A program made the translations under genes and the position numbers. Below the pieces are notes generated by a model. It was not told the origin of the DNA. It was given only the letters and a program-made list of their open reading frames with translations, and made no database searches. From IMG/VR virus record IMGVR_UViG_2778261231_000013: 9,255 nucleotides of DNA; one strand, given 5' to 3'. Shown piece after piece: positions 1-9,255 of the stretch (its first letter is position 1; the number at the start of each line of letters is the position of its first letter). Source of the DNA: a virus. Its lineage: Duplodnaviria > Heunggongvirae > Uroviricota > Caudoviricetes.

Positions 1-243
1 TTACAGTGCCAGCGATAGCTGATCTTCGCCGTGGTGACTTCGTGGAAAAGCTTCTTGTGGCACCATCGCGCCTGGCGCTGGCTGGGTCTGGTTTAGTGAA
101 CCGTCTATTTCCGTCATGCTGGTGAAACAGTACCCGCACAACATATTTTGACACTGGTGATAGCTGCGCCGTACAAGCAAACTCAGCTCAACGCTGGTTC
201 TGGTTTTTGCTATTGCACGGCAGCGAGGACAGCGCATTGCCAT
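1..243 (-). CDS. ogr: Ogr/Delta-family zinc-finger late transcription activator
   Basis: 80-codon ORF with stop at 1-3. Translation carries the Cys-X2-Cys ... Cys-X4-Cys pattern (CPRC ... CQNMLC) and the RTS and YHQCQN motifs I recall from P2 Ogr. It lies immediately downstream of D on the same strand, as in P2. GGAGG (minus strand, 251-255) sits 7 nt upstream of the ATG at 243; a second in-frame ATG is at 237. Confidence 0.85.
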   Translation of the reverse strand: MAMRCPRCRAIAKTRTSVELSLLVRRSYHQCQNMLCGYCFTSMTEIDGSLNQTQPAPGAMVPQEAFPRSHHGEDQLSLAL

Positions 244-291
244 ACGCGGGCCTCCTTTCAGGACTGGTTAATATCAACGCAAGTATAACGC

Positions 292-1410
292 TTAAGACGT
301 TGAATCGTCACTCTCCGCTGTCCAGTCGTCGATTTTTACTTCCAGTTCCAGCGACGTGGTAAACCCTCCCCCACCAATATCATGAACACACCGCGTTATC
401 GTCCAGTTCCCACTGTCGATCGTGGACTTAAAGCCGTAGACGCTGGCGGGCTGTTCCGGGTACAAATCTGCGCGGCCACGCGCCAGGGTGATGCTGAACG
501 TCGCTGCCCCGCGCTGCAACTCCCGCCACTTAGCCGCTGCGGCACGCTTTGCCGCCTTTTCCGTCTTGAAGGTTTTACGGATAACAAAAACGTTGCCTTC
601 GGCCCCGGCCAGATAATCCCCTTCTTTTTTGCTTGATGCTGGTTCTTTCTTTTTGGCCTGGCTGGTTCGTCGCCTGCGGGTGGTTTTCTTCACGGTAGTG
701 GATGGTTTCTTGCCAAAGTTGAGATCAAGCCAGTATGCAGTTACGCCCGTGTACGCGTCGCGGTCAGCTACGTTAAACCGATGTTTATCACCGCATGACC
801 GGACTATCTCGATCACCGGCAGCGGCTTGCCGCTCTGCGTCACTCCCTTGCCCGGCGTGATAAACAGAAGCATACCGTTTTTAATGGTTGCCACCGCGCC
901 CAGCATTTCGGCCATGCGCGTTAAGAAGCTGATATCTGATTCACTCGTCTGATCGGCGTGGTCTATCTCAATCTTCGCCAGTTCTTCGCTGACGCCCGCA
1001 CGCAGATCGTAGCGGCTGGCAATGCTGGCGACCACGTCCCCCACGGTAATATCGTGCCAGCTATATTCCCGCTTCACGTTAAAGGTATCGCGGAAATCTG
1101 CGCTTCTGGCACTGATCGTTAGCTGGTCAGGCGGGCCAGAGTGTCCGATCTCGTCAACCGTATACACGCCCTTAAAAACCAATGGATCATTATCCCAGCC
1201 CAGCGCCACCGATATCTTTGCGCCGCGTGATGGTAAGGCTACCTGCCCGTCTGCATCATCCAGAGTCAGATCCAGCGTGTCCGCTTCAAAGCCCCGGTTA
1301 TCTGTCAGGGAAAGGGAGATCAGCCGGTTATCCAGCGCCGTAAGCTCCTTACCTTCAATCTCAATACTGAACGCCGGGCGCGGCGAATATCGGTTTTCTG
1401 TCGTGTCCAT
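292..1410 (-). CDS. gpD: Tail protein D (P2 gpD-like late control gene D / baseplate hub-type protein)
   Basis: 372-aa ORF of the size and general sequence character of P2 gpD. It directly precedes ogr on the same strand, the P2 D-ogr arrangement. AAGGGG Shine-Dalgarno on the minus strand just upstream of the ATG at 1410. Confidence 0.85.
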   Translation of the reverse strand: MDTTENRYSPRPAFSIEIEGKELTALDNRLISLSLTDNRGFEADTLDLTLDDADGQVALPSRGAKISVALGWDNDPLVFKGVYTVDEIGHSGPPDQLTISARSADFRDTFNVKREYSWHDITVGDVVASIASRYDLRAGVSEELAKIEIDHADQTSESDISFLTRMAEMLGAVATIKNGMLLFITPGKGVTQSGKPLPVIEIVRSCGDKHRFNVADRDAYTGVTAYWLDLNFGKKPSTTVKKTTRRRRTSQAKKKEPASSKKEGDYLAGAEGNVFVIRKTFKTEKAAKRAAAAKWRELQRGAATFSITLARGRADLYPEQPASVYGFKSTIDSGNWTITRCVHDIGGGGFTTSLELEVKIDDWTAESDDSTS

Positions 1411-1477
1411 ATCAACCCCTTCATCATGATGGGGTACATCGTCGCCACGCGCGCGCGCATGAACAACGCCCCGTCAT

Positions 1478-1495
1478 TGTTGCAGGTTGCTGACA
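1478..1495. promoter_or_regulatory. Candidate Ogr-responsive late-promoter operator (TGT-N12-ACA dyad) in the divergent D/FI intergenic region
   Basis: The sequence TGTtgcaggttgctgACA at 1478-1495 matches the TGT-N12-ACA dyad described for P2/P4 late promoters (normally centred near -55). Its centre is about 81 bp upstream of the FI ATG; a weak -10-like GATATT lies at 1533-1538. No experimental support is available from sequence alone. Confidence 0.5.
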
Positions 1496-1567
1496 ACCCT
1501 TATCCATCGCATCGGCCCGCCATTGCCGCAATGATATTCGCAGTCATTAAACTGGCGAGGCAAATAC

Positions 1568-2761
1568 ATGGCCACTAACTACCATCACGGTGTTACCGTC
1601 ACGGAAACCACCGACCTTAGCACGATGATCACCGACATTGATTCGGCGGTGATCGGCGTTGTCTGCACCGCTGATGATGCGGACGAAACAGCGTTCCCGC
1701 TGGATACCCCTGTACTGATTACCCGCGTGGCTAACATGCTGGGCAAGGCAGGTAAAACCGGCACCCTGTTTACCACCCTGAAAGCGATTTCAGACCAGAC
1801 CAGCCCGCAAACCATTGTGATCCGCGTTGCTGATGCTGCAAATATCAAACCGCCAGAAGGCGGCACCGCACAGACTCAGGATCAACTGGTTATTGGCGGC
1901 ACCGATGCAAACGGGCGCTTTACCGGCATGTACGCGCTGCTGTCTGCCGAAATGCGCGTAGGTGTGCGCCCGCGTGTACTGGCTGTTCCTGGGCTTGATA
2001 CGGAAGCGGTAGCCGCACAACTCGGCGTCATTGCCGAAAAGCTGCGCGCGTTTGCTTACGTGGCAGCGAACGGCTGCAACACAATCGCCGAAGTGAAGGT
2101 ATACCGCGAGCAATTCTCCCAGCGTGAAATGATGGTTATCTGGCCTAATTTCATCTGCTACGACACCAACGCCGGGGCTAATGCCACCGTGCCCGTGGGT
2201 GCCCATGCTGTTGGGATGCGCGCCAAAATCGACGCAACGCAGGGCTGGCATAAAACCATTTCCAACGTGCCCGTTAATAACGTGCTGGGGATGGATCGGG
2301 ATATCTATTTCACGTTGCAGGGCACCGATACCGACGCCGACGAACTGAACGCAGCAGGTGTTACCACGCTGATCAAGCAGGACGGCTACCGCATCTGGGG
2401 ATCACGTACCTGCGACGCGGAAACGTATATCTTCGAAAGCTATACCCGAACCGCGCAGATTGTTGCGGATACCGTCGCCGAAGCCCATTTCGCCTATGTT
2501 GATAAACCGCTTACCCCGTCGCTGGTAAAGGACATTGTGGACGGCATCAATAAGAAGCTGACCTCATATGTGACGGCTGGCAAGCTGCTGGGCGCCCGCT
2601 GCTGGTATGACCCAGAACCGAATACCTCGGAAACTCTGCGCAATGGTCAACTGACCATTAAGTACAACTACACCCCTGTTCCACCGCTGGAAAATCTCAG
2701 CCTGGTACAGGAGTTCACCGACGAATATTTCGCTACGTTTTCCAGCGCAGTGAATAACTAA
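1568..2761 (+). CDS. gpFI: Contractile tail sheath protein (P2 gpFI-like)
   Basis: 397-aa ORF, the size of P2 FI, with an N-terminal ...YHHGV... segment as I recall for P2-type sheath proteins. GAGG 7 nt upstream of the ATG. Followed 12 nt later by the tail tube gene, as in P2. Confidence 0.9.
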   Translation: MATNYHHGVTVTETTDLSTMITDIDSAVIGVVCTADDADETAFPLDTPVLITRVANMLGKAGKTGTLFTTLKAISDQTSPQTIVIRVADAANIKPPEGGTAQTQDQLVIGGTDANGRFTGMYALLSAEMRVGVRPRVLAVPGLDTEAVAAQLGVIAEKLRAFAYVAANGCNTIAEVKVYREQFSQREMMVIWPNFICYDTNAGANATVPVGAHAVGMRAKIDATQGWHKTISNVPVNNVLGMDRDIYFTLQGTDTDADELNAAGVTTLIKQDGYRIWGSRTCDAETYIFESYTRTAQIVADTVAEAHFAYVDKPLTPSLVKDIVDGINKKLTSYVTAGKLLGARCWYDPEPNTSETLRNGQLTIKYNYTPVPPLENLSLVQEFTDEYFATFSSAVNN

Positions 2762-2773
2762 CCGGGGGCGCTT

Positions 2774-3289
2774 ATGGCACTGCCTAAGAAACTCAAATAT
2801 TTCAATATGTTCTTTGACGGGGATAACTACTTCGGCATGGTGCCGGAAATCACCCCCGCCAAACTCACCAAAAAAACGGAAGACTACCAGGCGGGTGGTA
2901 TGCCGGGTTCGGTTGCGGTGGATCTTGGCTTCGACGCTGGCGCCCTGGATATGGATATCACGCTTGGCGGTCTGGATGCCGGATTGCTGAAAAAATGGGG
3001 CGTTACCACTGCGGACGGGATGCAAACACGTTTTGCTGGCTCCTATCAGGACGACGCAACCGGCGACGCTGTACCGTGCGAAATCCAGACGCGTGGCCGC
3101 TTCACTGAACTGGATCCCGGTTCGGCAAAAGTCGGGGATGACACTTCGCATAAGTACACCCTGAAAAACACCTATTACAAGCTGACCATCAACGGCGAAG
3201 AGATCATCGAAGTTGATGTGCTCAACATGATCTACAAAGTTGCCGGTGTGGATGTGCTGGAAAAACACCGCGCTAACATCGGCCTATAA
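2774..3289 (+). CDS. gpFII: Tail tube protein (P2 gpFII-like)
   Basis: 171-aa ORF starting MALPKKLKYFNMF and ending ...RANIGL, colinear with my recollection of P2 FII (about 172 aa). Lies immediately after the sheath gene. Confidence 0.9.
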   Translation: MALPKKLKYFNMFFDGDNYFGMVPEITPAKLTKKTEDYQAGGMPGSVAVDLGFDAGALDMDITLGGLDAGLLKKWGVTTADGMQTRFAGSYQDDATGDAVPCEIQTRGRFTELDPGSAKVGDDTSHKYTLKNTYYKLTINGEEIIEVDVLNMIYKVAGVDVLEKHRANIGL

Positions 3290-3303
3290 GGAAACCCGGC
3301 ACC

Positions 3304-3639
3304 ATGAGCAAGACCAAAGAAAACACCGTTATTCTTACCGCCCCTATTACGCGCGGTAAGACCAAAATCACCGAAGTGGCGATCACTTCCGTGCTTAAAC
3401 AGGCTGGATCACTGCGCGGCTTAAAAGCCTATGACGTGCTGACTTCCAACTATGACGCGCTGGTTATTCTGCTGCCCCGCGTTACCGCTCCGGCACTAAC
3501 CGCCGATGAGATTGCCCGTATGGATACTTGGGATTTTTGCCAGCTAGCCAACGCGGTGGTTGATTTTTTGCAACCCTCTTCGGATCTGACCGCGACGGAT
3601 ACGGGCAACGAATCATCCGATGCCCCTGCGAACGCATAG
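3304..3639 (+). CDS. gpE: Tail assembly chaperone (P2 gpE-like), zero-frame product
   Basis: 111-aa ORF between the tube and tape-measure genes, the position of P2 E. AAGGAAA upstream of the ATG. Contains the T_TTT_TTG slippery heptamer at 3564-3570. Confidence 0.8.
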   Translation: MSKTKENTVILTAPITRGKTKITEVAITSVLKQAGSLRGLKAYDVLTSNYDALVILLPRVTAPALTADEIARMDTWDFCQLANAVVDFLQPSSDLTATDTGNESSDAPANA

Positions 3640-3764
3640 AAGACCTGATGGCAGATATCGCCGTCATATTCCACTGGCGGCCGGTAGAGATGGACGCCAT
3701 GACGGTACAGGAAATACTGTTATGGCGTGATCAGGCGGCTGCGCGCAGTGGTGGAGATAACTAA
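3304..3764 (+). CDS. gpE+E': Tail assembly chaperone E+E' fusion made by programmed -1 ribosomal frameshift (predicted, about 153 aa)
   Basis: After slippage on T_TTT_TTG (3564-3570) the -1 frame is open for 64 codons (ATLFGSDRDGYGQRIIRCPCERIEDLMADIAVIFHWRPVEMDAMTVQEILLWRDQAAARSGGDN) and ends at TAA 3762-3764, which abuts the T start at 3765. This fills an otherwise unexplained 125-bp gap and mirrors the P2 E/E' arrangement. Confidence 0.7.
3564..3570 (+). other. -1 programmed frameshift slippery heptamer T_TTT_TTG
   Basis: Zero-frame codons GAT-TTT-TTG (D-F-L) give the X_XXY_YYZ pattern with X=T, Y=T, Z=G, the heptamer reported for P2 E/E'. Confidence 0.7.
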
Positions 3765-6692
3765 ATGGCAGACCGCAATTTAAATATCAGGGTGGCATTC
3801 AGCGCCCTGAATAATATGTCCCGCCCTGTCAACGCGGCGCGCCAGAGTGCCGCCGCGTTGGCGTCTCAAATCAACCAGACTAAAACCAGCATTAAAGGGC
3901 TTGAGCGTCAGGCAACCAGCTTTGACCGCCTCACCGCAGCCAATAAAAAAACCACCGAACAACTGGCCCAGGCGAAAGAACAGGCCCGGCAAATGGCGGC
4001 GGCTTATGGCCCGTTACGCCAGCGCAGCGCCGAACAGGTTGCCGCCCTCAATCAGCAACGTGCAGCCATTCGCCAGTTAACCCAGCAGCAGAAAGGCGAG
4101 CAGACGCAGCTTAACCAGTTGCGGGCCAGCTTCTACAGCGAAGGCATTGCGATCAGCAGCGCCAGCCGGGCGACGGAACAGATCAACCAGCGCACCGCGC
4201 AATACAACCGCCAGCTTGCCGAACAGCAGCGACGGCTTGACGCTGTTAACCAGGCGCAGGCCCGTTACAGCCGCGCCAAAGAAACCGGCGAAAAGATGAT
4301 GAGCGGGGGGATGAAAAGCGCCGCAGTAGGGGCGGCAACCCTAGCACCTGTCGCCGCTGCGGTTAAATCCTACAGCAGCCTTGAAGACGCCATGAAAGGC
4401 GTAGCCAAACAGGTAAACGGCTTGCGTGACGACAGCGGCAACCGCACCCCGCAATATGAAGAAATGCAGCGGGCGATCATGGATGCCAGCGAAAAGCTGC
4501 CAATGGCAAACGGTGCTGTTGACTATGCCGCACTGGTCGAAGGCGGCGCACGTATGGGCGTAGCAAACATCGATGATCCGTGGGAAAAACAAAAAGCCGA
4601 TCTGCTGTCTTTCGCCAGCATGGCGGCAAAGGCTTCTGTTGCCTTTGAACTTCCCGCCGACCAGCTTTCTGAAAGTCTCGGTAAGATTGCCGGGCTGTAT
4701 AAAATCCCTACCCAGAATATTGAACAGTTAGGCGACGCCATAAACTACCTGGACGATAACGCGAAGTCGAAAGGCTCCGATATTATCGACGTGCTCCAGC
4801 GCGTTGGCGGACTTGCCAGCCAACTGGATTACAAGCAAGCCGCCGCGCTGGGTTCCACCTTTCTGACGCTCGGCACCCCTGCCGAAGTTGCCGCCAGCGC
4901 CACCAATGCAATGGTGCGCGAACTCTCAATCGCTACGGTTCAGGGCAAAAACTTTATGCAGGGTCTGGACGCCCTCGGCCTCAGCGCCGAAAAAGTTCAG
5001 AAGAGCATGTCAGTGGACGCGATGGGCACAATCATTTCAGTGCTGGAAGCGTCCAAAAAACTGGCCCCGGATCAGCAGGTAGCCAACCTTACCCAGATTT
5101 TCGGCAAAGAGTTCGGCGATGATGCGCAGAAACTTGCGAACAATCTGCCCGAACTACGCCGCCAGATAGAACTGACGCAGGGCGCAGCCGCTAAAGGATC
5201 CATGAATCGGGAATCGGATATCAACAAAGCTTCCCTTTCTGCTCAGTGGCAACTGACCAAAACCGGCGCGGTTAACGCATTCAGTTCAGCAGGGGAAACG
5301 CTCCGCGAACCGCTGATGGATATCATGCTTACTGTCAGTAAGGTGGTTGGCAGCGTCCGCCGCTGGGTTGAGGCAAACCCGGCGTTGGTTGGTTCAATCA
5401 TGAAAGTCACCGCAGCCATAGGCGCGTTGCTGGTTGTCGTGGGCGGTCTGATGCTGTCCATTGGTGCGGTACTCGGCCCAATGGCACTTGTTCGCCTCAG
5501 CTTCACCACGTTGGCCGGGGAAGGAGGAATAGCGCGGCTGACTGGCGGCGTAATGCGCCTGGGTGGTGCGTTCCAGTGGCTTGCTGGCTCGCCTATGCAG
5601 GCATTGTTAAGCGCCGGTCGCATGGTATTCGGCCCGCTTATCACGCTACTGGCTGGCATTTCTGCGCCCGTCTGGGGGCTGATTGCTCTCTTTTCTGCGG
5701 CAGCTGTGGCCGTCATTAAATTCTGGCAACCGATTAAGGCATTTTTCAGCGGGTTCTTTACCGGGCTGATGGCTGGCCTTCAACCTATCACGCAGGCATT
5801 TAACGCCGTATTTGCACCGCTGGCCCCGATTTTTGACAGTATCGGCAACGCGATCAGCGGCGTCTGGGAGTGGTTTACCAAACTGCTGGAACCGATCCAG
5901 TTTTCCAGCGAAGCGCTGGCATCCTGTACCAGTGCAGGGGAAACATTCGGCAAGGTGGTAGGGGGTGCAATCAGCGCGCTGACTCTTCCCATTCAGTCCG
6001 TAGCCAAAGGGCTGGGCTGGATTCTGGAAAAGCTTGGCGCCATTCCCGACGCAGCGAAAGCAGCGCAGCAGGTTGCGCAGCAAATGACGCCGGAAGCGGT
6101 CAACAATCTGGCAGACCGGGTTAACGCCTTTTCCGGTGACGTGCAGGCAGTCGCGAAGGAAAGCAAAAAAGCCGAAGAGAAAAAGAAAACCGATGAGCAG
6201 AAGAAACAGGACAACCTGATTAACTCGCTCAAAGGCCCGGCCAACATCGTGCCGAAGATGAGCAGTAGCTTGGACAAAATCGCCACCAATACCACGGAGA
6301 AGAAAGACGGCCCCGGCGAAATTGTCTTCAAGAATAAGCAGCCCTATATCCCGATCCGTGGCGGATATTCGGAACCTCTTAAGCAGGCACAGCGCCAGCT
6401 ACCATCCCTTACCGATTGGGTGACGCAGCAGGCCGGATCGCTGATCGCTTCCGTTACCCCCTGGCAGGTTGAGAAGCCCGCCGCCCGGGTGCCCGTTTCG
6501 GCGTCGCCGTCTGCGGCCTCCGTCGCTGCGCTGATGCCTGCACCGGGTGGCGATGTATATAACCTTAACTTCGACTTTAGCGGCCAGAAACTGGATGAAG
6601 AAACCATTATCAGGCGCGTGCGCGAAGAACTTGCGTTAGCGAAGCAGCAGGCCGACCGGCGCAAGCGTTCCCAACTGACCGATCACGTCTAA
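3765..6692 (+). CDS. gpT: Tail tape measure protein (P2 gpT-like)
   Basis: 975-aa ORF in the position of P2 T. Q/A-rich coiled-coil-like N-terminal third, central hydrophobic segments (for example ALVGSIMKVTAAIGALLVVVGGLMLSIGAVLGPMALV), and a charged K/E-rich patch, all typical of tape measure proteins. Confidence 0.9.
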   Translation: MADRNLNIRVAFSALNNMSRPVNAARQSAAALASQINQTKTSIKGLERQATSFDRLTAANKKTTEQLAQAKEQARQMAAAYGPLRQRSAEQVAALNQQRAAIRQLTQQQKGEQTQLNQLRASFYSEGIAISSASRATEQINQRTAQYNRQLAEQQRRLDAVNQAQARYSRAKETGEKMMSGGMKSAAVGAATLAPVAAAVKSYSSLEDAMKGVAKQVNGLRDDSGNRTPQYEEMQRAIMDASEKLPMANGAVDYAALVEGGARMGVANIDDPWEKQKADLLSFASMAAKASVAFELPADQLSESLGKIAGLYKIPTQNIEQLGDAINYLDDNAKSKGSDIIDVLQRVGGLASQLDYKQAAALGSTFLTLGTPAEVAASATNAMVRELSIATVQGKNFMQGLDALGLSAEKVQKSMSVDAMGTIISVLEASKKLAPDQQVANLTQIFGKEFGDDAQKLANNLPELRRQIELTQGAAAKGSMNRESDINKASLSAQWQLTKTGAVNAFSSAGETLREPLMDIMLTVSKVVGSVRRWVEANPALVGSIMKVTAAIGALLVVVGGLMLSIGAVLGPMALVRLSFTTLAGEGGIARLTGGVMRLGGAFQWLAGSPMQALLSAGRMVFGPLITLLAGISAPVWGLIALFSAAAVAVIKFWQPIKAFFSGFFTGLMAGLQPITQAFNAVFAPLAPIFDSIGNAISGVWEWFTKLLEPIQFSSEALASCTSAGETFGKVVGGAISALTLPIQSVAKGLGWILEKLGAIPDAAKAAQQVAQQMTPEAVNNLADRVNAFSGDVQAVAKESKKAEEKKKTDEQKKQDNLINSLKGPANIVPKMSSSLDKIATNTTEKKDGPGEIVFKNKQPYIPIRGGYSEPLKQAQRQLPSLTDWVTQQAGSLIASVTPWQVEKPAARVPVSASPSAASVAALMPAPGGDVYNLNFDFSGQKLDEETIIRRVREELALAKQQADRRKRSQLTDHV

Positions 6693-6702
6693 GGGCAATA
6701 TC

Positions 6703-7152
6703 ATGATGATGATTCTGGGGATGTTCCCCTTTTCACTGCAAACCACGCCTTACCAGAGTGCGAATAAAACCAACTCCTGGCGGCACGTCAAAAACGATCG
6801 CGTGGGGAAATCCCCGCGCTATCAGTTCATCGGCGCAGATGAAGAACCGTTCGTACTCAGCGGCACGCTGTACCCCGAAATAAGCGGCGGTGATGTGTCG
6901 CTTGTCATGCTGGAAACTATGGCTTTTTCCGGGCGCCCGTGGCCCCTGATAGAAGGCACGGGCAGGATCTACGGCATGTATGTCATTGAGCAGATCACGC
7001 AAAACCGGACGGAATTTTTTAAGGACGGGAAGGCAAAGAAAATTGATTTTACGCTCAACCTGAAACGGGTAAGCGAGGACATACGGGAAAAGCTGGCTGA
7101 AACAACTACCGACGATCTCTTCTCTCTGGTGAAAACCAACCTTTCGATATAA
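6703..7152 (+). CDS. gpU: Tail protein U (P2 gpU-like)
   Basis: 149-aa ORF starting MMMILGMF, with SWRH, VGK and TGG motifs matching my recollection of P2 gpU (which also starts MMM). Lies directly after T. AAGGG 7 nt upstream of the ATG. Confidence 0.85.
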   Translation: MMMILGMFPFSLQTTPYQSANKTNSWRHVKNDRVGKSPRYQFIGADEEPFVLSGTLYPEISGGDVSLVMLETMAFSGRPWPLIEGTGRIYGMYVIEQITQNRTEFFKDGKAKKIDFTLNLKRVSEDIREKLAETTTDDLFSLVKTNLSI

Positions 7153-7155
7153 GAA

Positions 7156-7175
7156 AAGCGGGCCTTTGCCCGCTT
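7156..7175. terminator. GC-rich hairpin between convergent U and invertase genes (candidate bidirectional intrinsic terminator)
   Basis: AAGCGGGC (7156-7163), loop CTTT, GCCCGCTT (7168-7175) form a perfect 8-bp stem. An A-rich run precedes it on the plus strand, which gives a U-rich tail for minus-strand transcripts; the plus-strand tail (CGTCTTCC) is less U-rich. Confidence 0.5.
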
Positions 7176-7258
7176 CGTCTTCCGGAACACACCGCCATAA
7201 CTGACCGTGCTACAGCACCGTTAAAAATGACTGTACTCGATACGCACGGCCAGCACGG

Positions 7259-7840
7259 TTAGAACCAGCCATGCGTGCCGGAATCCTTATTCCTGGTCGC
7301 AGGGAATTTTTTGTAAAGCGTAGATATCCCAACATCGTAAATTATAGCAACCCTCCGGCGAGATTCTCCTGCCGCTATTAATCTACCCGCCTGCGCCCAT
7401 TGTTCTGGTGTTAGTTTTGGTCGTCTACCTCCGATCCTTCCCTGCGCGCGAGCGGCCACCAGTCCTGCACGCGTACGCTCGACAATCAATTCTCTCTCCA
7501 TCTCTGCCAGTGCCCCCATAACATGAAAAAAGAAACGCCCCATTGGCGTTGATGTATCAATACTGTCAGTCAAGCTGCGGAAGTTCACGGAACGTTGCTT
7601 TAGCTCCTCCACGAGAATTACCAAGTTCCGCATACTCCGCCCAAGACGATCCAGCTTCCAGACAACAAGCGAGTCTCCTGGAGAAAGGCGCTTTAGTAAT
7701 TTTTTAAGCCCTGGCCTTTCCGCTGTTCTCCCGCTCATTTTATCTTCAAAAATTAGCTCACATCCTGACCGCTCAAGCGCATCACGTTGCAAAGCCGTGT
7801 TCTGGTCATTTGTTGATACGCGCACATACCCAATAAACAT
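7259..7840 (-). CDS. Site-specific DNA invertase, serine recombinase of the Din family (Gin/Pin/Cin/Hin-like)
   Basis: 193-aa ORF with N-terminus MFIGYVRVSTNDQ carrying the catalytic serine, then conserved blocks LVVWKLDRLGRSM, FRSLTDSIDTSTPMGRFFFHVMGALAEMERELIVERT and a C-terminal helix-turn-helix (VAIIYDVGISTLYKKF). It is near-colinear with my recollection of Pin (e14) and Gin (Mu). Confidence 0.95.
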   Translation of the reverse strand: MFIGYVRVSTNDQNTALQRDALERSGCELIFEDKMSGRTAERPGLKKLLKRLSPGDSLVVWKLDRLGRSMRNLVILVEELKQRSVNFRSLTDSIDTSTPMGRFFFHVMGALAEMERELIVERTRAGLVAARAQGRIGGRRPKLTPEQWAQAGRLIAAGESRRRVAIIYDVGISTLYKKFPATRNKDSGTHGWF

Positions 7841-7894
7841 AGTTTTTCATTCCGTTAAAACGATAAATCATGCCATTCGCATAAAAATTATGCA

Positions 7895-7920
7895 TTTTCC
7901 AAAACGTTGGTTTGGGGGAA
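7895..7920. other. Candidate 26-bp invertase crossover site (hix/gix/cix-like)
   Basis: TTTTCCAAAACG-TT-GGTTTGGGGGAA: two imperfect inverted 12-bp half-sites around a central TT dinucleotide. It resembles the Din-family consensus half-site TTATC(C/A)AAAACC (about 9-10 of 12 matches per half). It lies 55 bp upstream of the invertase start, where such sites sit next to gin/pin/cin. Confidence 0.6.
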
Positions 7921-8259
7921 GCGGCCAAATTGCCTGCGATTAGTGGCTCTTTATCATCATCTGGCTGGATAAAAATCCCTGTTATAGAGGGGGAGTCTTT
8001 TATTATCCAATGGGGAAGAATCGGACCTTCTGATAGTAAAACTGGTGTTGCAACAGGAAGTTATCCTATTGCTTTTCCAAATTCTGCATTTATGGCATTT
8101 ATTGCTGAAAAAACCGCAGTATCCACAGGCCCAATAGGTATTAATTCCTGGGGAGTGTCCGAACTAACAAAAACAGAATTAAAGGCCATTTGTGCTGCAA
8201 GGACTATATCAACTTCAGCCGCAACTGAAATAGGTGATTTTCTGGTACTGGGATATTGA
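7912..8259 (+). CDS. Start-less tail-fibre C-terminal variable cassette (silent alternative receptor-binding end; no ATG start of its own)
   Basis: The ORF track starts it at a TTG, but the frame is open from 7885 across the crossover site. Its stop TGA (8257-8259) is followed by a tfa gene, the usual fibre-then-assembly order. It has no promoter or constant N-terminal fibre part in this orientation. Markedly AT-rich. Confidence 0.5.
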   Translation: MGEAAKLPAISGSLSSSGWIKIPVIEGESFIIQWGRIGPSDSKTGVATGSYPIAFPNSAFMAFIAEKTAVSTGPIGINSWGVSELTKTELKAICAARTISTSAATEIGDFLVLGY

Positions 8260-8279
8260 ACTTCCATAAGGATTATAAA

Positions 8280-8729
8280 ATGTCGAGCATAATATACTAC
8301 AGCTCTATAAATAATGCATTTTACCCTGAGCATTTGAAACAAGAATATATTAAATCTAATTCTTTTCCAGCAGATGCAAAACCCGTTAAATATTCTGTTT
8401 TCGAAGAATTTGCACTTAAACCAGCACCAGAAGGAAAATACAGATGCGTTGGTGAAGATGGAATGCCATCATGGGCAGATATTCCACCACCAACACATGA
8501 GGAACAGATTGCCGCAGCCGAATTGAAAAAGCAGCAATTGATTAACCAGGTCAACGAATACATGAACAGTAAACAATGGCCCGGTAAAGCGGCTATTGGT
8601 CGTCTGAAAGGTGAGGAACTGGCGCAATATAATCTGTGGCTGGATTACCTGGACGCACTGGAAATGGTCGATACTTCCAGTGCTCCAGATATTGAATGGC
8701 CTACGCCTCCGGCAGTTCAGGCCAGATGA
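8280..8729 (+). CDS. tfa: Tail fibre assembly protein (Tfa family; Mu U / lambda Tfa-like)
   Basis: ATG at 8280 preceded by AGGA (8270-8273); I prefer this to the upstream in-frame TTG at 8256. The C-terminus ...VDTSSAPDIEWPTPP matches the conserved Tfa C-terminal motif (compare TfaE ...VDTSTAPDIEWP, from memory). Confidence 0.8.
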   Translation: MSSIIYYSSINNAFYPEHLKQEYIKSNSFPADAKPVKYSVFEEFALKPAPEGKYRCVGEDGMPSWADIPPPTHEEQIAAAELKKQQLINQVNEYMNSKQWPGKAAIGRLKGEELAQYNLWLDYLDALEMVDTSSAPDIEWPTPPAVQAR

Positions 8730-9255
8730 CATCTGGCGCGGTGCTGGTATCAGTTGCCGTCACCGCGTCAATGTAATCCAGCACAGCGTTAAGGCGGGTT
8801 GTTTCTGCCTGCGTCAGCTTCCGCCCGGCCTGTAATTTCAGTTGAATCAGACTAATGGAAGCCATTGCAGTATCCATCAGCGACTGGCGCTGTGCTTCTG
8901 CTGCGTCTACTGCGGCGCTATGCTGTGCCTCAGTATCGGTCACCCATTTCTCACCATCCCATTTATCGTATGGCGTTAATGGGGCGATAGTGGTTGTATT
9001 TTCAGGGTAATCACCCGGAGCGGTGATTTCTTTTGATTCTCCTGTTTTGGTGCTATAGACCGTTTCACCGCGATGGTCTGGCACATATTCCCATGAGTTA
9101 AAATCTGCAGAACGGCAGATTGCATAACCAGCCTTATGTGTGCCAGGGGCATCTAAACAGGAACATGCCGGAATGCCGACACCAACGGCAAGATATTCAT
9201 TTGAAGTGGAAATATATTCCCGAGTTTCACCATCATAGCTATAGACGGTAATATT
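8701..9255 (-). CDS. tfa: Second tail fibre assembly protein (Tfa family), 5'-truncated by the window edge
   Basis: The minus-strand frame is open from the window edge to the stop at 8701-8703. Translation (...FNSWEYVPDHRGETVY...KWDGEKWVTDTEA...TDTSTAPDVIWPELPEA) is colinear with my recollection of e14 TfaE. The ORF track's 8701..9084 reflects only the first in-window alternative start (GTG); no ATG/GTG/TTG exists upstream in frame, so the real N-terminus lies past 9255. Confidence 0.8.
   Translation of the reverse strand, partial: NITVYSYDGETREYISTSNEYLAVGVGIPACSCLDAPGTHKAGYAICRSADFNSWEYVPDHRGETVYSTKTGESKEITAPGDYPENTTTIAPLTPYDKWDGEKWVTDTEAQHSAAVDAAEAQRQSLMDTAMASISLIQLKLQAGRKLTQAETTRLNAVLDYIDAVTATDTSTAPDVIWPELPEA

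Follow-up and report, generated by a model that had tools for sequence, protein, structure and literature searches.

A type of device that is well known among phages is a small recombinase that flips a stretch of DNA, swaps the tip of a tail fibre and changes hosts. The C segment of phages P1 and P7 (Cin) and the G segment of phage Mu (Gin) share the same logic, in which a constant fibre part (Sc) is combined with alternative ends (Sv and Sv') and the chaperones U and U'. In Escherichia coli, invertible fibre loci are found in P2-like prophages (EPEC E2348/69, PMC4272514; L002, L012 and L014), where a Din-family invertase separates the fibre genes from the sheath operon; in cultures of EPEC E2348/69, mapped reads revealed that the P2-like loci invert (Goldberg et al. 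2014, PMC4272514), and read-level evidence of inversion in culture covers both P2-like prophages and e14 of E. coli (PMC4272514). The P segment of e14 in strain K-12 comprises stfP/ycfK, tfaP, tfaE, stfE and pinE; a crossover site lies just upstream of the invertase start, transcription of the invertase gene leads away from the segment, and the two fibre ends, each with its own tail-fibre assembly chaperone gene (tfa), converge with an overlap of 29 bp.

Here we describe a 9,255-nt stretch of DNA, hereafter the window, in which the gene order and orientation of e14 P recur together with these features of its site, its invertase and its converging fibre ends, and in which the invertase holds the same place between fibre genes and sheath operon as in the P2-like loci. 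Very probably, the region contains one half, the one nearer the invertase, of an invertible segment that switches the tail fibre, and with it the host range, between two states; its carrier is an E. coli prophage of the P2 family, SEN4/SEN5-like and situated next to fieF. An earlier note on this DNA, made from its letters, had proposed such a switch from a Din-family serine invertase, a 26-bp crossover site, a start-less fibre cassette with its own tfa, and a second, converging tfa; we recovered every one of these elements at or near the place it had been given (Table 1), and the interpretation is supported. The second site and the constant fibre gene of the source strain are predicted by extrapolation from complete sister prophages, and an effect of the switch on host range is likewise predicted.

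Table 1. Features of the window, with positions in nucleotides and strand where applicable.
Feature	Positions	Strand	Remarks
ogr	1-243	-	P2-type tail module, Pfam Ogr_Delta
gpD	292-1410	-	P2-type tail module, Pfam Phage_GPD
Sheath FI	1568-2761	+	P2-type tail module, Pfam Phage_sheath_1
Tube FII	2774-3289	+	P2-type tail module, Pfam Phage_tube
gpE	3304-3639	+	P2-type tail module, Pfam Phage_P2_GpE
Tape measure T	3765-6692	+	P2-type tail module, Pfam PhageMin_Tail
gpU	6703-7152	+	P2-type tail module, Pfam Phage_P2_GpU
G+C-rich hairpin, putative terminator	7155-7176		Between converging gpU and invertase 3' ends
Serine DNA invertase, Hin/Gin/Cin/Pin (Din) family	7259-7840	-	Intact, 193 aa; reads away from the invertible segment
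Putative recombinational enhancer (Fis-binding 'sis' element)	7755-7822	-	Nt 19-86 of the invertase gene, 5' part
Start-less tail-fibre C-terminal cassette, Gp53-like_C type, currently silent	7885-8259	+	Functional part from the crossover point, ∼7908
26-bp crossover site	7895-7920		12-bp half-site, central TT (7907-7908), 12-bp half-site
Tail-fibre assembly chaperone (tfa) of the silent cassette, TfaP-like	8280-8729	+	149 aa, Caudo_TAP 1.5e-35
Converging TfaE-type tail-fibre assembly gene	8701-9255	-	Open to the window edge, Caudo_TAP 2.4e-33

Source of the sequence and lineage of the tail module

The window corresponds to the terminal 9,255 bases of the E. coli draft contig NNZM01000022.1 (assembly GCA_002545375.1) and is the reverse complement of positions 1-9255 of L007. 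The earlier note had the window edge cut through the invertible segment; the segment is indeed cut, but the edge is the physical end of the draft contig, and the missing half is therefore out of reach on NNZM01000022.1. Exact-protein look-ups with the invertase, the tfa and the called cassette, which covered the longest contigs only, found no second contig of this assembly, and in such a look-up the exact 109-aa called cassette protein is known only from the source contig.

The P2-type tail module that had been recognised next to the switch is borne out by Pfam families across positions 1-7152, assigned on the identical genes of L007 and, for GpU, matched in the window itself; its lineage, however, is that of the Salmonella phages SEN4 and SEN5 (Senquatrovirus, Peduoviridae), with the block from FI to U flipped relative to P2. 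The canonical co-directional P2 order (H-G-FI-FII-E-T-U-D-ogr), kept by canonical P2-like prophages such as L002, does not occur in the window, where FI to U lie on the plus strand and D and ogr, joined in relatives by the fibre and baseplate genes, on the minus strand. Since this layout is common to SEN4 and SEN5, we regard it as a trait of the lineage. A flip of the FI-U block by the invertase was considered and rejected, as the window contains no further Din-like site with up to seven mismatches; a repeat search found no inverted repeat at the borders of the block. A loose version of the core motif has five matches in the window against 1.4 expected, a count reached by 7 of 200 shuffles.

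Invertase gene

The product of the invertase gene carries a Resolvase domain (Pfam, residues 3-135, 5.7e-50) followed by an HTH_7 domain (residues 138-181, 3.9e-13). Its catalytic-serine motif, GYVRVSTNDQ, is intact, with Ser9 present, and the Y-x-R-V-S-T-x-x-Q motif of Din invertases takes the form MFIGYVRVSTNDQ. The protein is 84.0% identical to PinE of K-12 e14, 79.1% to Cin of P1 and 78.6% to Cin of P7, and over residues 1-183 it matches the Gin structures 3UJ3 and 4M6F (E=1e-85 and 3e-84, respectively), scoring 289 bits to the Gin structures as opposed to ∼100 bits to gamma-delta resolvase.

The 5' part of the gene contains a putative enhancer, for which Fis binding and dependence are predicted. 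Here, 58 of 68 nt are identical to the annotated cin enhancer of phage P7, compared with 366 of 540 nt over the whole gene. When the gene is set against five other Din invertase genes, codons for the same amino acid are themselves identical in 61-79% of cases within codons 7-29 but in only 33-42% within codons 30-178, an approximately two-fold excess with a one-sided Fisher p of 0.001-0.015 in four of the five comparisons and of 0.098 in the fifth. This evidence is indirect, since gene 5' ends are commonly under other constraints too.

On the other side of the gene, the hairpin between the converging gpU and invertase 3' ends gives a terminator-like match, with nine pairs of which six are G-C, and is likely a terminator. 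A scan of positions 7100-9255 for sigma-70-like promoters returned two matches, as against 3.7 in shuffles, and we claim no invertase promoter.

Crossover site

The crossover site, which had no coordinates in the earlier note, reads TTTTCCAAAACG TT GGTTTGGGGGAA, lies 54 bp upstream of the invertase start, and forms the invertase-proximal boundary of the invertible segment. It agrees with the pinE-proximal site of e14, TTTTCATAAACGTTGGTTTGGGAGAA, at 23 of 26 positions and is the sole match to that site in the window when up to three mismatches are allowed; such a match occurred in none of 200 dinucleotide-preserving shuffles (expected by chance, 0). Around the core TT, 8 of 12 positions agree between its two half-sites, and the whole site aligns with the cix sites of P7 and with each of the two sites in every complete relative. 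Related loci part ways inside the right half-site; homology to LT883142 (100% identity) stops at position 7916, and homology to the segment of UPEC_U013 begins at 7901.

The search with up to seven mismatches found no second site in the window, and the captured half holds no third site of the kind expected for a multi-state, shufflon-like switch. A switch of that type was rejected, the relatives that carry the cassette pair of the window having two sites.

Silent fibre end and the two chaperone genes

The frame of the fibre cassette follows a TAA at 7882-7884 and runs open from 7885 to a stop codon at 8257-8259 without an ATG, and the 'TTG start' at 7912 falls within the crossover site. It reads ...FQNVGLGEAAKLPAIS..., with FQNVGLGE encoded across the site. 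The cassette matches Pfam Gp53-like_C at 2e-09 and agrees at 115 of 119 positions (96.6%) with the C-terminal 119 residues of the complete 213-aa fibres of the E. coli prophages L015 and L028, in which the cassette end is fused in frame at ...ENLGLGE, followed by AAKLPAIS; to the C-terminus of StfP from K-12 it is 39% identical. The tfa that belongs to it encodes a protein 51% identical to K-12 TfaP, the two being nearly the same in their C-terminal halves. The exact 149-aa Tfa recurs in many P2-like and e14-like prophages, in active or silent position, and always directly follows a Gp53-like_C fibre end wherever one has been called.

The converging TfaE-type gene, presumably the active copy, is identical to residues 17-200 of K-12 TfaE at 177 of 184 positions (96%). 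It is truncated by the contig end, which removes ∼16 codons, and its start is predicted near 9303; in relatives, the 200-aa TfaE-type gene directly follows the fibre gene. The 3' ends of the two tfa genes overlap by 29 bp, exactly as those of tfaP and tfaE do in e14. Both orientation states of this cassette pair occur in nature. A search of phage databases with the segment returned only the two tfa genes (∼90%, in assorted P2-like phages) and no full-length match.

Complete relatives and observed inversion

Complete prophages of the same lineage share the integration site next to fieF. Three features predicted by the earlier note are present in every one of them except the decayed L006: on the minus strand a fibre gene runs into the segment, an inverted second site lies a few kb to the right, and it is the plus-strand cassette that is silent. 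Seven relatives (L001, L003-L005 and L022-L024) show the succession of invertase, site, silent cassette with its tfa, converging tfa and fibre gene, followed by gpI, J, W and V, and the fibre gene holds a second, inverted site ∼1.7-1.9 kb from the first. An example is L001, whose fibre gene occupies 11183-12475 on the minus strand and contains the site at 11642-11667, with the sequence ...FLQNLGLGE.... Exactly two inverted sites at this distance of ∼1.7-1.9 kb are found in L001-L005, L011, L012, L014, L015, L018 and L022-L024, and L004 matches positions 1-7916 of the window with 100% identity.

Inversion is documented in sister prophages by two pairs of complete genomes, the members of each pair being apparently clonal. 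A stretch of 1825 bp in 0H23 recurs as its exact reverse complement in 0H25, as does one of 1826 bp between 2020N21-246 and 2020N21-246-1, with zero mismatches in the flanks in either case. In both pairs only the right half-sites are swapped, so the crossover falls within TTGGTTTGGG. These prophages, caught in either orientation, have an invertase 96% identical to that of the window (186/193), so that the window invertase differs from one seen to invert at 7 of 193 residues. Two read-based assemblies with an identical invertase break at the crossover site. L006 also has an identical invertase, yet its site is decayed (left half-site and central TT only) and it has no partner site; carrying the invertase thus does not guarantee a working switch.

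Proposed mechanism

The biochemistry of inversion is established for Hin, Gin and Cin, and we modelled the mechanism on it. Dimers of the Pin/Cin-type serine invertase would bind the 26-bp site at 7895-7920 and a predicted inverted partner ∼1.86 kb to the right, near 9756-9781 and within the fibre gene, where the minus strand should read about TTCT-C-AAAACCTTGGTTTGGG. The two sites would be brought together at the Fis-bound enhancer within the 5' end of the invertase gene, and strand exchange at the central TT would flip the segment. The constant N-terminal part of the fibre, predicted on the minus strand outside the segment and ending in ...QNLGLGE at the site, would then be joined alternately to one of two ends, namely a StfE/Collar-type end with the TfaE-type chaperone, which would correspond to the assembled orientation, or the Gp53-like end (7908-8259) with the chaperone encoded at 8280-8729.

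Alternative explanations and possible module exchange

The visible half could be genuine and the switch nevertheless be frozen or decayed, if the source strain has lost the partner site, the activity of the invertase or the constant fibre gene. Precedents for such decay exist, as L006 combines the identical invertase and a half-site plus TT with a different 640-aa fibre and no second site, the same cassette pair adjoins IS1 in L018-L020 where no resolvase gene is called, and stfE of K-12 e14 is annotated as a pseudogene; moreover, the contig ends before the decisive part. However, both half-sites, the central TT, the invertase reading frame and both tfa frames are intact in the window, and the full architecture is present in five complete sisters whose invertase is the same or 96% identical, two of them caught in both orientations, and we therefore consider a frozen switch unlikely. 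A very improbable explanation is that the locus is an artefact of assembly, in which a Senquatrovirus-type prophage was misjoined, at the short repeated site, to the P segment of another, e14-like prophage in the same genome. From 7901 on, the segment does have its closest match (97%) in an e14-like element of UPEC_U013, the contig of the window is the only one with the exact called cassette protein, and it ends within a multi-copy tfaE-type gene. Nevertheless, the elements have only ∼16-20 bp in common across the site, which would not suffice to mislead a modern assembler, the right half-site of the window (GGGGGAA) differs from the e14-like copies, and the order of invertase, silent Gp53-like cassette, 149-aa Tfa, TfaE and fibre recurs in P2-like prophages of many finished genomes (L002, L012, L014, L016 and L021).

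The invertase might also act mainly in trans on other segments, such as e14 P or those of other prophages, and the adjoining cassette be a passive relic. Din invertases cross-complement, a subject on which the title of a 2006 study by Kutsukake reportedly bears, and sites of the e14 and P2 types differ from that of the window at only 3 of 26 positions. Action in trans is, however, compatible with a local, two-state switch, and with the local site intact and optimally placed, and sister prophages flipping their own segment, a role mainly in trans appears highly implausible. Together with the local two-state switch, which we prefer, we tentatively entertain an idea about its origin that we think possible but hold in some doubt, namely that the whole segment, with two ends and two chaperones, is a portable module swapped between unrelated prophage families by invertase-mediated recombination at the site and not by ordinary homologous recombination. 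Its range may span Senquatrovirus-type P2-like prophages, canonical P2-like prophages and e14-like elements with Mu-type baseplate genes. Hints in this direction are a sister prophage that is 100% identical up to 7916 and then continues into a different segment, an e14-like element that is 97% identical from 7901 on, and one relative whose junction lies exactly after the central TT.

Significance and comparison with known systems

The region opens no new biological question, and its main practical value lies in annotation: a small 'hypothetical' or 'gp53-like' ORF next to a recombinase is a silent fibre end and not an independent gene, the prophage would be able to present two receptor-binding tips, and draft assemblies tend to break in or near invertible segments. 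It also provides a natural example of SEN4/SEN5-type phages, which lack such a device, gaining a ready-made e14-type host-range switch in E. coli.

The locus had been likened to Mu G, P1 C and e14 P alike. The architecture of the switch supports this, but the closest system is e14 P (PinE 84%, TfaE 96%), not Mu G or P1 C. The cix sites of P1 and P7 share the core AAACCTTGGTTT with the site of the window, and their enhancer lies within the invertase gene, where that of the window is also predicted. In contrast, the C segment of P7 measures ∼4 kb as opposed to a predicted ∼1.86 kb here, the 3' end of cin abuts cixL in P7 so that cin is transcribed into the segment, whereas in the window it is the 5' end of the invertase gene that faces the site, and the fibre ends of P1/P7 and Mu are unrelated in sequence to those of the window.

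Among P2-like prophages of E. coli, L002 and L012 carry the cassette pair of the window and the exact same 149-aa Tfa. Canonical members are co-directional, in the order H G, segment, invertase, FI...U D ogr, unlike the Senquatrovirus-like window with its flipped FI-U block, and their invertases are only 77-78% identical to that of the window (148-151 of 193 residues). One of the EPEC loci has three sites and four states, whereas only a two-site layout is indicated here.

The identity of the window to e14 is 84% for PinE, 96% for TfaE, 51% for TfaP and 39% for the C-terminus of StfP, in addition to the 23 of 26 positions of the site. The two differ in their host element, a P2-family myovirus prophage here and a cryptic prophage in the case of e14, in the silent cassette, which is another Gp53-like variant in the window, and in the invertase, which has 193 aa and a divergent C-terminal tail as compared with the 184 aa of e14 PinE; in addition, the stfE side of e14 is an annotated pseudogene. 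SEN4 and SEN5, for their part, are 94.4% identical in nucleotide sequence to the window over positions 1-7258 and share its unusual layout of ogr(-) and D(-) with FI-U(+), but they have neither an invertase nor an invertible segment, and homology stops at the stop codon of the window invertase; after gpU they continue instead with a fixed fibre, a macro-domain gene and a single tfa. They were recovered as particles of myovirus morphology (PMC5261728).

Components of the probable fibre switch

The window corresponds without any difference to positions 1-9255 of its source contig locus, read as the reverse complement; these are the last 9,255 bases of NNZM01000022.1 (assembly GCA_002545375.1). 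The adjoining host DNA (fieF, pfkA and sbp) shows 100% identity with chromosomes of E. coli, so that the host organism is E. coli. From the sequence, the earlier note had proposed a Din-family serine invertase, a 26-bp crossover site and a start-less C-terminal fibre cassette with its own tail-fibre assembly chaperone gene (tfa) and a converging second tfa, and each of these parts is borne out (Table).

Table. Features of the probable invertible fibre locus, in window coordinates.
Feature	Position	Strand	Description
Serine invertase	7259-7840	-	193-aa ORF; Resolvase catalytic domain and HTH_7 domain
Putative Fis-bound enhancer	7755-7822		nt 19-86 of the invertase gene; similarity to P7 cin element
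26-bp crossover site	7895-7920		TTTTCCAAAACG-TT-GGTTTGGGGGAA; 54 bp upstream of the invertase start
tfa of silent cassette	8280-8729	+	149 aa, Caudo_TAP
Converging TfaE-type tfa	8701 to edge (9255)	-	Caudo_TAP; 177/184 identical to K-12 TfaE

Besides its two domains, the invertase has the motif GYVRVSTNDQ with Ser9, shares 84% identity with K-12 PinE and 79% with P1/P7 Cin, and matches solved Gin structures over residues 1-183 at E=1e-85, much more strongly than it matches resolvases. Within its gene, the enhancer candidate shares 58 of 68 positions with the annotated P7 cin element (68% identity for the whole gene), and synonymous codons are conserved there about twice as often as elsewhere in the gene (one-sided Fisher test: p between 0.001 and 0.015 for four comparisons out of five, 0.098 for the remaining one); an enhancer is plausibly located here, the sequence conservation being supportive but short of conclusive. 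When the e14 site was used as a query with up to 3 mismatches, the tabulated site was the sole match in the window, and none of 200 shuffles matched.

The cassette frame follows a TAA at 7882-7884, runs through the site without an ATG, reading ...FQNVGLGEAAKLPAIS..., and stops at 8257-8259. It encodes a Gp53-like_C domain and is identical at 115 of 119 positions to the C-terminal residues of complete 213-aa fibres from other E. coli prophages, where ...ENLGLGE is joined to AAKLPAIS. The 3' ends of the two tfa genes overlap by 29 bp, as do those of tfaP and tfaE in e14. In the assembled orientation, the cassette (7908-8259) and its tfa are the silent set, and the expressed set would consist of the TfaE-type chaperone and an unseen fibre end, whose StfE/Collar type is taken from relatives with the same cassette pair. 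The protein-position index lists this exact 149-aa Tfa in 494 blocks. It is present both in prophages of canonical P2-like type and in others whose baseplate genes are Mu-type, and takes either the active or the silent position; at some loci (L018, L019) its neighbour is IS1 or a fragment of IS1, and no invertase gene is called there.

The feature is indeed cut by the window edge, as had been noted: position 9255 is the physical end of a draft contig, at which the tfaE-like gene still lacks about 16 codons to its start. This is likely a repeat-induced assembly break, the tfaE-type gene being multi-copy in E. coli prophages.

Complete relatives and natural inversions

Exactly this invertase protein is encoded on 15 contigs; the long ones among them all carry the same prophage, inserted at one chromosomal site beside fieF. 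In all complete relatives except one decayed sister prophage (L006), the order is invertase, site, silent cassette with tfa, converging tfa and fibre gene, and a second, inverted site lies inside the fibre gene, about 1.7-1.9 kb from the first, where the fibre reads ...LQNLGLGE...; downstream follow gpI, J, W, V and the remainder of a P2-type morphogenesis region. As the start-to-start spacing of the sites is 1861-1863 bp in L002 and L012, two canonical P2-like prophages with the window's own cassette pair, the partner site is predicted near 9756-9781, about 500 bp beyond the contig end.

Inversion itself is seen within two apparently clonal pairs of finished genomes, whose invertase is identical to the window's at 186 of 193 residues. 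Between 0H23 and 0H25, the 1825 bp separating the sites are exact reverse complements with identical flanks, and between 2020N21-246 and 2020N21-246-1 a stretch of 1826 bp is inverted with no flank mismatches. In both pairs the left half-sites are fixed and the right ones exchanged, which confines the exchange to TTGGTTTGGG, containing the central TT; through the inversion, an annotated fibre of 1284 or 1293 nt becomes one of 1179 nt, and each of the two tfa proteins moves to the other strand. The window's cassette pair is likewise known in both states: canonical P2-like prophages have it silent beside the invertase, and e14-like elements, that of UPEC_U013 for example, have it joined to a fibre N-terminus. 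Two Logan read-based assemblies with an identical invertase (L010 and L009) end at 7913 and 7931, inside the site and 11 nt past it, a suggestive match to what a culture of mixed orientation would give. Inversion at read level has been published for e14 and EPEC P2-like prophages (PMC4272514).

The observation is confirmed and its interpretation as a switch supported: the locus is very probably a Pin/Cin-type host-range switch, an already well-known kind, and is mildly notable only for its Senquatrovirus-type backbone and for recombination breakpoints exactly at the crossover site. In Hin, Gin and Cin, the established steps are dimer binding, action of a Fis-bound enhancer and exchange at a 2-bp core. 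By this knowledge, invertase dimers would bind both sites, the Fis-bound enhancer would trap the two together, and strand exchange would take place at the 2-bp core; the present analysis contributes the parts and the natural inversions, the remaining mechanism being taken over from these systems.

Alternative readings and possible segment exchange

A switch frozen or decayed in the source strain is possible, given that the decayed sister prophage, although its invertase is identical, retains no more of the site than the left half and the central TT (L006 9900-9950, Logan SRR20646446; ...AAAACGTT followed directly by CGATTGG...), has a different 640-aa fibre and lacks the second site; all visible parts in the window, however, are intact. 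The sister copy is a dead switch. Its junction coincides exactly with the crossover dinucleotide and may be the trace of a deletion made by the invertase or of an exchange with a secondary site.

Homology also changes at the site in the window itself: the related prophage in LT883142 is 100% identical over 1-7916 and then continues into another segment, and the UPEC_U013 e14-like segment is 97% identical from 7901, so that the breakpoints at 7901-7916 bracket the site core. A chimeric assembly across the site is unlikely, as the shared core is merely about 16-20 bp and the same gene order recurs in many finished genomes; from these alignments, whole invertible segments appear to have been swapped at the site between unrelated prophage types. 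That the invertase acts on other segments in trans would be compatible with the switch and is no true alternative to it.

Comparison with known systems

The P2-type tail module of the earlier note holds for the tail genes, which are of the P2 family, but not for a canonical P2 backbone. Over 1-7258 the window is 94.4% identical to SEN4 and SEN5, two P2-like phages of Salmonella (Senquatrovirus) that have been recovered as particles and have the morphology of myoviruses (PMC5261728); unlike the window, they are without any invertase. The SEN5 homology ends at 7258, one base before the invertase stop codon, and the invertase and segment thus form an added module that belongs to the E. coli members. 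Where these hold the invertible segment, SEN5 has a macro-domain protein gene between its fibre gene and tfa (L027 13912-14736). The FI-FII-E-T-U block (1568-7152) lies on the opposite strand to D/ogr (1-1410) and to the relatives' fibre and baseplate genes, a flipped layout shared with SEN4 and SEN5, whereas in canonical P2 all these genes are co-directional; since a 157-bp spacer (1411-1567) separates the divergently oriented D and FI, D cannot end the FI operon as it does in P2. Neither inverted repeats nor Din-like sites were found at the borders of the FI-U block in the window. In the interval 3640-3764, which separates gpE (3304-3639) from the tape-measure gene, a short GpE-family ORF (24-38 aa as called in relatives) occupies the expected place of the P2 E/E' programmed frameshift, but gene callers differ on its extent.

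The closest system to the switch is the e14 P segment of K-12, in which the genes stand in the same order and the invertase is turned the same way with respect to the site, with TfaE 96% and PinE 84% identical to their counterparts in the window. The C segment of P1/P7 and the G segment of Mu follow the same logic but differ in size and fibre ends, and in P7 C it is the opposite end of the invertase gene that faces the site.
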